Source: an uncultured Candidatus Saccharibacteria bacterium
GTDB lineage: Bacteria; Patescibacteriota; Minisyncoccia; Phycocordibacterales; G965230995
Direction of reading: 5' to 3'
DNA length: 64,000 nt
Assembly (NCBI GenBank): GCA_965230995.1
Contig: OZ246398.1
Span: forward strand, 309,204-373,203
The translations under genes were made by a program, and so were the position numbers. The notes beneath the pieces were generated by a model that saw only the letters and a list, made by a program, of their open reading frames with translations, had not been told where the DNA came from and searched no databases. This document shows, one piece after another, positions 18,534 through 20,329 of the stretch (position 1 is the first letter of the stretch; each line of letters begins with the position of its first letter).

Positions 18534-20025
18534 TTTATTAAGAGTTTGATCCTAGCTCAGGATGAACGCTGGCGGCGTGGATAAGGCATGCAAGTCGAGT
18601 GGGTTTAGACCCACGGCGAACGAGGTAGTAATACATAGGAACTTCCCCCAAAGTCAAGAATAACCAGTCGAAAGATTGGATAACACTTGATAGTCTCTAA
18701 GGAGTAAAGATTTATCGCTTTGGGAAAGGCCTGTGGAGTATCAGCTAGTTGGTAGTGTAAAGGACTACCAAGGCTATGACGCTTAGGGGAGCTGAGAGGC
18801 TGACCCCCACCGATGGTACTGAGACACGGACCATACACCTACGGGTGGCTGCAGTCGAGAATCTTCCGCAATGGACGAAAGTCTGACGGAGCGACGCCGC
18901 GTGATCGATGAAGTCTCTAGGGACGTAAAGATCTTTTCTGAAGGAGGAAGTCTATTGACGTTACTTCAGGAATAAGGGGTTCCTAAACTCGTGCCAGCAG
19001 GAGCGGTAATACGAGTGCCCCGAGCGTTATCCGGAATCATTGGGCGTAAAGGGTGCGTAGGCGGTAGTATTAGTCTTTTGTTAAATTCTTCGGCTCAACC
19101 GGGGTATGGCGAAAGAAACGGTACAACTAGAGGATGTGAGAGGTGAACGGAACTCATGGAGTAGGGGTGAAATCCGTTGATATCATGGGGAACACCAAAT
19201 GCGAAGGCAGTTCACTGGCACATTCCTGACGCTGAGGCACGAAAGCGTGGGTAGCGAATGGGATTAGATACCCCAGTAGTCCACGCCCTAAACGATGATC
19301 GCTGGTTTTTTGGAGTATCGACCCTCTAAGAGACGAAGCTAACGCGTTAAGCGATCCGCCTGGGTAGTACGGCCGCAAGGCTAAAACTCAAAGGAATAGA
19401 CGGGGACTTGCACAAGCAGAGGATTATGTGGTTTAATTCGATGACAAACGAAGAACCTTACCAAGACTAGAAACCTATTCGAATCCTTCTAGAAATAGGA
19501 GGAGTCCGCAAGGACGGATAGGCAGGTGATGCATGGCCGTCGTCAGTTCGTGATTTGAGTTGTTCCCTTAAGTGGGGTAACGAACGCAACCCTCATTGTC
19601 TGTTACAAGTATCAGGCGAGACCGCCCAGCCCTTTGGAATCAAAGATTGATTCTAAAGGGCTGGGAGGAAGGTGGGGATGACGCCAGGTCAGCATGTCCC
19701 TTGATGTCTTGGGCCACACACATAATACAATGGCTACTACAACGTGAAGCGACGGGGTAACCCTGAGCAAATCATAATAAAAGTAGCCTCAGTTCGGATT
19801 GGGGGCTGAAACTCGACCCCATGAAGTTGGATTTGCTAGTAATCGCGGGTCAGCTATACCGCGGTGAATACGTTCTCAAGTCTTGTACTCACCGCCCGTC
19901 AAGTCAGGGGAGTTGGGAGTACCCGAAGTCGGCGCTTGTCGTCGCCTAAGGTAAGCTCAATGACAAAGACTAAGTCGTAACAAGGCACGGCTAGCGGAAG
20001 CTGGTCGTGATGTAATTCAAGGTGA
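18534..20025 (+). rRNA. rrs: 16S ribosomal RNA. The 3' boundary is approximate and the 3' tail is non-canonical.
   Basis: The 5' agagtttgatcctagctcag and 3' aagtcgtaacaagg blocks are present. The 515 region reads gtgccagcaggagcggtaatac, a CPR-like primer mismatch. After helix 45 the tail reads atgtaattcaagg instead of gatcacctcctt. Confidence 0.88.
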
Positions 20026-20329
20026 AAAACGTTAGTGCTTCTCTACAGGAGCACTAACTGAGAGGTCGGTATTGTGTATCTCGATCGAGTACATAATAGC
20101 CATCTATATGATGGAGATGAGAAAACATCTTTCAAAAATCTATACAGTTCGGAAAGACGAATACTGTAGTGAACGAAACAAAATAGGGAATAAAGCAAAA
20201 AACCGCCATAGGCGGTTTTTTGCTACCTATATATACTTGCTTTTTGCACTTGTTGTGGTATAATACATATTGAAGCCGCCTGGCGTTTCAGGCGACGTAG
20301 TTTCAGGCCCAAACCACAAGGAGTGGGTC

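Follow-up and report, generated by a model that had tools for sequence, protein, structure and literature searches.

A 16S rRNA 3' tail without the anti-Shine-Dalgarno sequence in a bacterium of the Paceibacteria radiation

The 16S rRNA gene carried by a 64,000-nucleotide stretch of an uncultured bacterium (GenBank assembly GCA_965230995.1, contig OZ246398.1, positions 309,204 to 373,203; this whole stretch is called the window, and positions are counted from its first letter) has lost the anti-Shine-Dalgarno (aSD) sequence. Through ordinary substitution, AUUCA stands where CCUCC is expected downstream of helix 45 (h45). The native genes of the window have lost their Shine-Dalgarno (SD) sequences as well, and with both partners lost the choice of start codons would be independent of SD:aSD pairing. 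The explanation as a whole, an aSD-less lineage that selects its start sites without this pairing, is judged very likely to be correct. SD:aSD pairing is how bacteria choose their start sites according to the textbooks, and few sequences in biology are as conserved as the CCUCC tail. Its loss from an entire free-standing radiation, a different case from that of scattered degenerate endosymbionts, implies that the mechanism is dispensable. Loss of the aSD in a subgroup of the Parcubacteria has already been published, and the window is a further member of it; because the basic fact is known, what the window contributes is chiefly a clean example with independent confirmation, and some anatomical detail.

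The 16S rRNA gene, its lineage and its 3' tail

The 16S gene matches the bacterial small-subunit (SSU) model of Rfam from end to end (model positions 1-1533, 1346 bits; Table 1). The final 13 positions of the model, GAUcACCUCCUUu, share almost no identities with the corresponding window sequence at 20010-20022, so that the 13-15 nt after h45 of this intact gene contain no CCUCC. All ten base pairs of h45 hold across 76 related sequences, and six of them show compensatory changes. This covariation indicates that the register in which a preceding reading of the sequence alone (the sequence-only reading) had placed h45 is correct and unshifted, in agreement with the covariance-model alignment. 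That reading had also noted the missing CCUCC and its absence from the following stretch, and both observations are upheld: neither CCTCC nor GGAGG occurs between 19990 and 20330, and a search of the whole window for GGATCACCTCCTT with up to three mismatches gave 9 matches against 11.8 expected from shuffled sequence, none of them near the 16S gene. It had left three possibilities side by side, namely loss of the aSD, its replacement and its concealment by an intervening sequence (IVS). Loss is the one that stands; replacement finds no complementary motif at gene starts and concealment no downstream CCUCC.

The 530 loop at 18997-19018 reads GUGCCAGCAGGAGCGGUAAUAC in place of ...GCAGCCGCGG..., and relatives were gathered with this 22-mer by scanning one genome per species, which gave at least 120 Patescibacteria contigs. 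All counts for relatives given here (75 or 76 loci or sequences, 324 and 23 genes) are drawn from the matches listed in that scan. Most of the listed contigs are labelled Paceibacterota, Parcubacteria, Nomura-, Kaiser-, Adler-, Zambryski-, Wolfebacteria or Minisyncoccia. Among the matches listed, the 16S genes of species representatives are 80-88% identical to that of the window (best about 87%), and the window genome itself is absent from the representatives retrieved. The standard genetic code and a base composition of 30-40% GC fit the Paceibacteria/Parcubacteria group, and the coding content includes rplJ/L, secD/F/A, mur genes and many glycosyltransferases. By the affiliation of its 16S gene, the window appears to derive from the Patescibacteria (Candidate Phyla Radiation, CPR), within the Parcubacteria/Paceibacteria radiation. 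The 530-loop variant, a signature of at least 120 contigs, amounts to a CC to GA change within the 515F primer site, so that standard 515F amplification would fail.

CCUCC is missing from 70 of the 75 related 16S loci whose 3' end is included among the matches listed. The five loci with (C/U)CUCC at the canonical place are a Kuenenbacteria locus (L025), a Peribacteria locus (L113), L068 and two Parcubacteria with AUCUCC; those of the Kuenenbacteria and Peribacteria resemble an outgroup. The 70 tails fall into a few types: GGAAU-AAUUCAA (37), AAUUCCA/G (13), AUAUCCA/G (12), AACUCAA (5) and rarer forms, and the window tail is of the UUCA type. When metagenomes were scanned for the window-specific tail, a contig, L121, came up whose 16S gene is about 94% identical to that of the window and whose tail, GUCGUGAUGUAAUUCAAGGUGAAA, is the same. 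Positions 20010-20013 of the window (AUGU) depart from the clade consensus GGAAU/GGAUU, and L121 has AUGU as well. By these distributions, the loss of the aSD is a lineage-wide trait. In the available excerpts of published surveys, CCTCCT is reported from only 48% of Parcubacteria, the lineages without it overlapping the group that lacks uL1 (Tsurumaki 2022, RNA 28:1041, PMC9297842), and Campbellbacteria and Wolfebacteria are assigned to a class iv described as SD-scarce and without CCUCC (PLoS One 2024, e0289914, PMC10783764).

A covarying hairpin at the former aSD positions

The positions once occupied by the aSD have kept a pairing partner. Canonical Patescibacteria in the sample pair their aSD with the first bases of the trailer (CUCCUU-UCU-AAGGAG), as at the 16S/spacer junction of canonical bacteria (e.g. 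CCUCCUUUCUAAGGAG). The window hairpin (Table 1) has the same position and register, and aSD-less relatives form UUCA-auu-UGAA, UUCC-aauu-GGAA, CUCA-aau-UGAG or UCC-aauc-GGA there. In contrast to the canonical hairpin, both strands have changed together in the lineage (UUCA/UGAA, UUCC/GGAA, CUCA/UGAG), so that pairing is retained without any anti-SD content. When the hairpins are aligned with the 3' strand anchored on its first GA, independently of the flanking bases, the position equivalent to E. coli 1539 is A:U in 25 sequences and C:G in 29, with 5 exceptions, and position 1536 is U:A in 25 and C:G in 8. A further tally of these pairs gives C:G in 23 and A:U in 20 sequences at 1539, and U:A in 27 and C:G in 6 at 1536. 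An exact complement of the three-nucleotide core lies within a loop distance of 3-7 nt in 55 of 76 sequences (66 of 76 if a register shift of one base is allowed), against 26.5 +/- 3.7 with permuted partners and a maximum of 39 in 2000 permutations. Cells with changes on both sides numbered 29, compared with 14.6 +/- 2.5 in shuffles (0 of 500), and controls with slid positions were lower. A rough neighbour-joining tree of the 3' two-thirds of the 16S gene, in which the Peribacteria outgroup is misplaced, was used solely for a lower bound on state changes: the hairpin types form clades on it, with at least 5-6 changes of state per covarying position. An earlier ungapped alignment of 76 tails (MAFFT/RNAalifold) recovered h45 only, because the loops differ in length, and was replaced by the GA-anchored alignment and the permutation test.

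In model bacteria, the mature 16S rRNA ends a few bases after CCUCC, and the region that follows is removed. The 3' strand of the tail hairpin probably lies beyond the mature 3' end, in the trailer. The pattern of substitutions suggests that the hairpin descends from the aSD:AAGGAG hairpin of canonical relatives, its pairing kept by compensatory substitutions. Its most likely role is in 3'-end maturation of pre-16S rRNA or in assembly, rather than in mRNA binding. The upkeep of the hairpin after loss of the aSD would then be a natural experiment that separates the maturation role of the 16S 3' end from its mRNA-binding role.

A different role is conceivable, in which the hairpin would persist in mature 16S rRNA. 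As a 4-bp helix within the molecule it would fill the cleft of the platform, the usual site of the SD:aSD duplex, and serve the structure of the 30S subunit. This is rather unlikely, as the AAGGAG strand of canonical relatives lies at the start of the trailer, in the region that model bacteria remove. On the other side, covariation has been kept in a helix too weak to be stable unaided, a sign of some stabilising context; conserved sequence extends for about 17-20 nt after h45, where 13-15 nt is usual (Amin 2018); and Parcubacteria show unusual conservation of helix 26 (h26), a contact of the SD helix, according to the available excerpts of PMC9297842. The fuller version, with the former anti-SD re-used as such a mimic of the SD helix and the whole Paceibacteria radiation translating from leaderless or unstructured starts alone, is improbable to the same degree. 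If true, it would mean a bacterial class whose mRNA-docking site has been structurally remodelled, beyond a mere degenerate tail.

Gene starts in the window and in its relatives

Open reading frames (ORFs) were called mechanically, and the 40 nt 5' of their starts were compared with the 40 nt 5' of internal ATGs, a GGAG, GAGG or AGGA at -18 to -4 being counted as SD-like. Such sites precede 2 of the 49 native ORFs of the window (4%), against 10% at internal ATGs, and in relatives without an aSD they precede 10% of 324 genes (control 11%). The frequency rises to 26% in 23 genes of relatives with a canonical tail (control 7%) and to 3 of 4 in the GC-rich ORFs of the window (control 27%), of which those starting at 15308, 20330 and 25503 have a textbook SD. 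The statistics thus bear out the sequence-only reading, which had found no SD at the native starts it checked and had located the SD-type sites on GC-rich islands. Over the 49 window genes and 324 genes of relatives, neither SD-like nor tail-complementary motifs are enriched upstream.

This last result also bears on the idea that the new tail (AAUUCAA...) is a working alternative anti-SD with changed specificity, whose partner would be an SD resembling UUGAAUU. The tail is conserved inside subclades (AAUUCAA, AAUUCCA, AUAUCCA, AACUCAA), and U1537 and C1538 hardly vary, if at all, across the 76 sequences, as such a function would predict. However, TGAA, TTGAA and GAATT are not enriched at -20 to -2 in the window, where TGAA is if anything depleted (4% vs 10%), and the class-specific complements (GGAA, GGAT, TGAG) are not enriched in relatives of matching tail type. 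An unbiased k-mer test yields only -10-box and A/T-rich words, and Amin 2018 likewise found no organism in which a variant aSD is perfectly matched by a variant SD. Since the complementary motifs are enriched neither in the window nor in any tail-type group of relatives, an alternative SD was rejected as highly unlikely.

The most enriched upstream hexamer in the k-mer test is TATAAT (10% vs 0.4%, p=9e-26), followed by A/T-rich words. Its spacing peaks at 6-8 nt 5' of the ATG. A -10 box stands 5-10 nt before the start in 15 of the 49 window genes (31%) and in 62 of the 324 genes of relatives (19%), compared with about 1-2% at internal ATGs, and about half of these start-adjacent boxes carry an extended TGn. 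Four examples are listed in Table 1. This spacing, seen in a sizeable share of genes and with its peak at 6-8 nt, is the one expected of leaderless or near-leaderless transcripts, and it suggests that promoter-proximal genes have such mRNAs. The remaining starts are A-rich from -13 to -2, and many overlap the preceding stop codon. In the immediate start context, 65% of native genes (e.g. 881, 22573, 27275, 49953) have U at -1 and 65% have A at -2, and in relatives U at -1 reaches 46%. A longer contact with the anticodon loop of the initiator tRNA may lie behind this preference, or simply -10 boxes and A/T-rich leaders.

The small GC-rich ORFs (15308-15928, 20330-20827 and 25503-25820; also a doubtful one at 393-803 on the minus strand) have 49-55% GC against 30-40% for the genome, textbook SDs at 7-9 nt and no Pfam domains. 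They look like recent foreign acquisitions that retain the initiation signals of their donors. The suggestion of the sequence-only reading that island genes might initiate poorly in this host is speculative. The ORF at 20330-20827, between the 16S gene and tRNA-Ile, encodes a signal peptide and has its own promoter (TTGTTG-17-TATAAT); searches gave no phage match and no Pfam match for it, and one distant homologue only. Independent assemblies confirm that it is truly part of the genome.

The 16S precursor, the decay of the aSD and other features

Two explanations would remove the phenomenon altogether, and both are extremely unlikely. In the first, the window 16S would owe its tail to misassembly at the boundary of a conserved repeat, or would be a surplus copy in decay beside a canonical one elsewhere, for which the view through a single 64-kb window and the AUGU at 20010-20013, unusual even inside its own clade, can be cited. 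However, contigs from four independent sequencing-run assemblies (Logan), located through the protein of the adjoining ORF 20330-20827, match window positions 19873-21393 at 99.9-100%, tail included; the organism occurs in runs SRR14271366/67/73/74. The same tail recurs in L121, a relative diverged by 6%, the remainder of the 16S gene is intact and full length, and the trait is common to 70 of 75 relatives; the variant is thus typical of close relatives and reproduced by independent assemblies. The genes lack SDs, as is expected if the window 16S is the working rRNA. In the second, a canonical tail would be hidden behind an IVS or a long 3' extension between h45 and the real CCUCC, or the mature end would lie further downstream. 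CPR rRNA genes often contain insertions, the 23S gene of the window has a group I intron, and about 145 nt separate the tail from the leader-trailer helix. Yet no CCTCC lies between 19990 and 20330, GGATCACCTCCTT-like sites occur at chance level in the window, relatives have no CCUCC at any consistent downstream position, and no intron family was detected at E<=1 at the 16S 3' end (Rfam, 3' part with alignments). No canonical tail resumes after an insertion; the downstream sequence consists of conserved hairpins of trailer type.

The precursor is bounded by a leader-trailer helix and followed by a terminator-like hairpin (Table 1). Trailer hairpin 1 has a different sequence in L121, where a stem still appears possible, as judged by eye. 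Most related loci have GUCGAU or GUCGGU and a hairpin with covarying stems 40-60 nt downstream of h45. The trailer architecture is class-wide (L001-L121) and comprises a variable hairpin, GUCGAU/GUCGGU, an 8-12-bp covarying hairpin whose centre is very often a perfect 6-bp palindrome (CAATTG, CGATCG, CGTACG, CAGCTG), and a third hairpin. The conserved element has no Rfam match, and might perhaps be a processing site. Pairing of UACACAAAACC in the leader with GGUAUUGUGUA in the trailer was considered and rejected, because the leader segment is not conserved in L121 and the trailer element is identical there.

Table 1. Coordinates of the 16S rRNA gene, its 3' tail, precursor elements and start-adjacent -10 boxes in the window
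Feature	Position	Strand	Basis or remark
16S rRNA gene, full length, Patescibacteria/Paceibacteria type, 530-loop variant GUGCCAGCAGGAGCGGUAAUAC	18534-20022	+	Rfam RF00177
Helix 45, CACGGCUAGC-GGAA-GCUGGUCGUG	19986-20009	+	covariance-model alignment; 10 pairs
16S 3' tail AUGUAAUUCAAGG, no CCUCC	20010-20022	+	aligned opposite GAUCACCUCCUUA
Small tail hairpin, UUCA (20016-20019)-AGG-UGAA (20023-20026)	20016-20026	+	covariation
Leader-trailer (processing) helix, 5' strand	18485-18510	+	inverted repeat I1, 26 nt, 92% complementary to 20168-20193; conserved in L121
Leader-trailer helix, 3' strand, bounding the 16S precursor	20168-20193	+	no CCUCC inside
Intrinsic terminator-like hairpin after the 16S precursor	20194-20224	+	inverted repeat I3, 14 bp perfect, then T run
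Trailer hairpin 1, 12-bp stem	20031-20058	+	I5; sequence varies between relatives
Trailer element GUCGGU and long hairpin, palindromic centre CUCGAUCGAG	20065-20097	+	100% identical in L121, flanks diverged
TATAAT 7 nt before ATG, gene 10129-11523	10116-10131	+	
TATAAT 8 nt before ATG, gene 13878-15230	13864-13880	+	
TATAAT 8 nt before ATG, gene 21533-22510	21519-21535	+	
TATAAT 6 nt before ATG, gene 62434-62811	62422-62436	+	

The favoured explanation, an aSD-less and SD-independent lineage, can be put as follows. The 16S tail of the lineage has lost its CCUCC core by ordinary substitution, and the genes have lost their SDs alongside. Promoter-proximal genes would be translated from leaderless or near-leaderless mRNAs, a -10 box, in many cases extended by TGn, lying 5-10 nt from the ATG. 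Internal genes would depend on A/U-rich sequence before the start and on close coupling to, or overlap with, the gene in front. Two constraints that hold an unused aSD in place in other SD-blind bacteria, autoregulation of bS21 and recognition of GAUCACCUCC by Era in 30S maturation, seem frequently to be missing here, and a lineage without bS21 and Era would be under neither. What remains is the small hairpin that the former aSD positions form with the beginning of the trailer.

Such a release of constraint is likely in the light of the literature. Era binds GAUCACCUCC and has been lost in most CPR bacteria, Paceibacteria included (PMC10582724; PMC12641178), and bS21 is frequently absent from Parcubacteria in the available excerpts of PMC9297842. 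In Flavobacterium johnsoniae, ablation of the ASD impairs translation of rpsU (bS21) and 16S maturation, possibly via Era/YbeY (PMC13000453). Among the ORFs of the 64-kb window there is no bS21 (rpsU), Era or rplA, and none contains an L1 or L11 domain. rplJ-rplL (881-1811) is preceded by an L10 leader and a GC-rich non-coding stretch, and rplK-rplA does not adjoin it.

Several points weigh against this explanation. If Saccharimonadia keep the aSD, loss of Era alone would fail to explain the decay. They too are reported to be without Era (PMC12641178). A second 16S copy, rpsU, era or rplA may lie beyond the 64-kb window. The SD statistics rest on 49 and 324 crudely called genes, as only 64 kb were seen, and the canonical control group is small, with 23 genes. 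The tail hairpin is thermodynamically marginal, with four A/U-rich pairs, and is missing from the minimum-free-energy fold of the window; its two inner pairs are fitted by the anchoring on GA, which leaves the two outer pairs as independent tests. Finally, leaderless transcripts and the placing of the mature 3' end are both predictions from the sequence.

Among the closest known systems is the Parcubacteria subgroup without an anti-SD (Tsurumaki 2022; PLoS One 2024), which belongs to the same radiation, has no CCUCC(U) after h45 and almost no SDs. The available excerpts of these papers give presence or absence of the motif only, whereas the replacement consensus, the covarying hairpin and the start-abutting -10 boxes are not described there, and the window tail departs further, with AUGU for GGAAU after h45. 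Relative to those excerpts, the additions made here are modest. They comprise the tail hairpin with its covariation and its homology to the aSD:trailer hairpin, the finding that no tail class has an alternative SD, and the -10 boxes placed right next to starts.

The Bacteroidia with their "blind" ribosomes, and Flavobacteriia with ASD substitutions (Chryseobacterium, Blattabacterium), are likewise SD-independent, with A-rich unstructured leaders, and some of their ASDs are mutated. In Bacteroidia, however, the ASD is sequestered by bS21/bS18/bS6, and most keep it for rpsU autoregulation and 16S maturation (PMC13000453), whereas in the window lineage the ASD itself is gone and the group is frequently without bS21 and Era. 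Sequestration of that type was dismissed for the window, whose 16S has no ASD to occlude. Endosymbionts and hemoplasmas (Carsonella, Hodgkinia, Nasuia, Mycoplasma haemocanis; Lim 2012, Amin 2018) also combine small genomes with loss of CCUCC and no compensating SD. Their tails drift, even between Hodgkinia copies, whereas the tail of the window lineage is conserved by clade and, through compensatory change, held in a hairpin across a class-level radiation. Groups dominated by leaderless genes (Actinobacteria, Deinococcus, many archaea; GeneMarkS-2 group C/D) share the -10 box about 6-8 nt from the start in a sizeable fraction of genes. The bacteria among them retain a canonical aSD and use SDs for internal genes, whereas no SD route is apparent in the window lineage. 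The consequences concern gene calling in CPR genomes (start prediction and ribosome-binding-site models), annotation of 16S 3' ends, expression of CPR genes in heterologous hosts and the fate of foreign SD-dependent genes in CPR bacteria.

The rRNA genes of the window are unlinked and in an odd order (4472-8441, 18534-21136): 23S-5S, 10 kb of protein genes, 16S, and then tRNA-Ile(GAU) about 1 kb downstream. The 23S gene measures 3763 nt against a 2925-nt model and contains a group I intron at 6489-6772 (82.6 bits) and further insertions. In the 16S gene of L121, the closest relative (~94% identity), a 41-nt insertion in the helix-6 region (alignment A2 columns 140-180; window ~18612) is lacking in the window, an example of the quick gain and loss of rRNA expansion segments in the lineage.

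Window positions 1-745 (especially 300-745), 5' of the L10 leader and rplJ, have about 48-52% GC and are apparently non-coding. This stretch folds far better than shuffled sequence (z=-5.15), and its segment 1-215 ends in a terminator-like hairpin and a T run. Its ORFs have no Pfam match, and Rfam at E<=1 over 1-900 gives the L10 leader only; the stretch is a candidate for an unknown structured RNA or RNAs. A glycosyltransferase gene is apparently split, in that a 613-aa ORF (49953-51794) ends inside the GT1 domain (profile 6-102 of 172) and a 93-aa ORF in another frame (51797-52078) carries the remainder (profile 110-171). A frameshift in the gene, an error of sequencing or a programmed shift could each account for the split.

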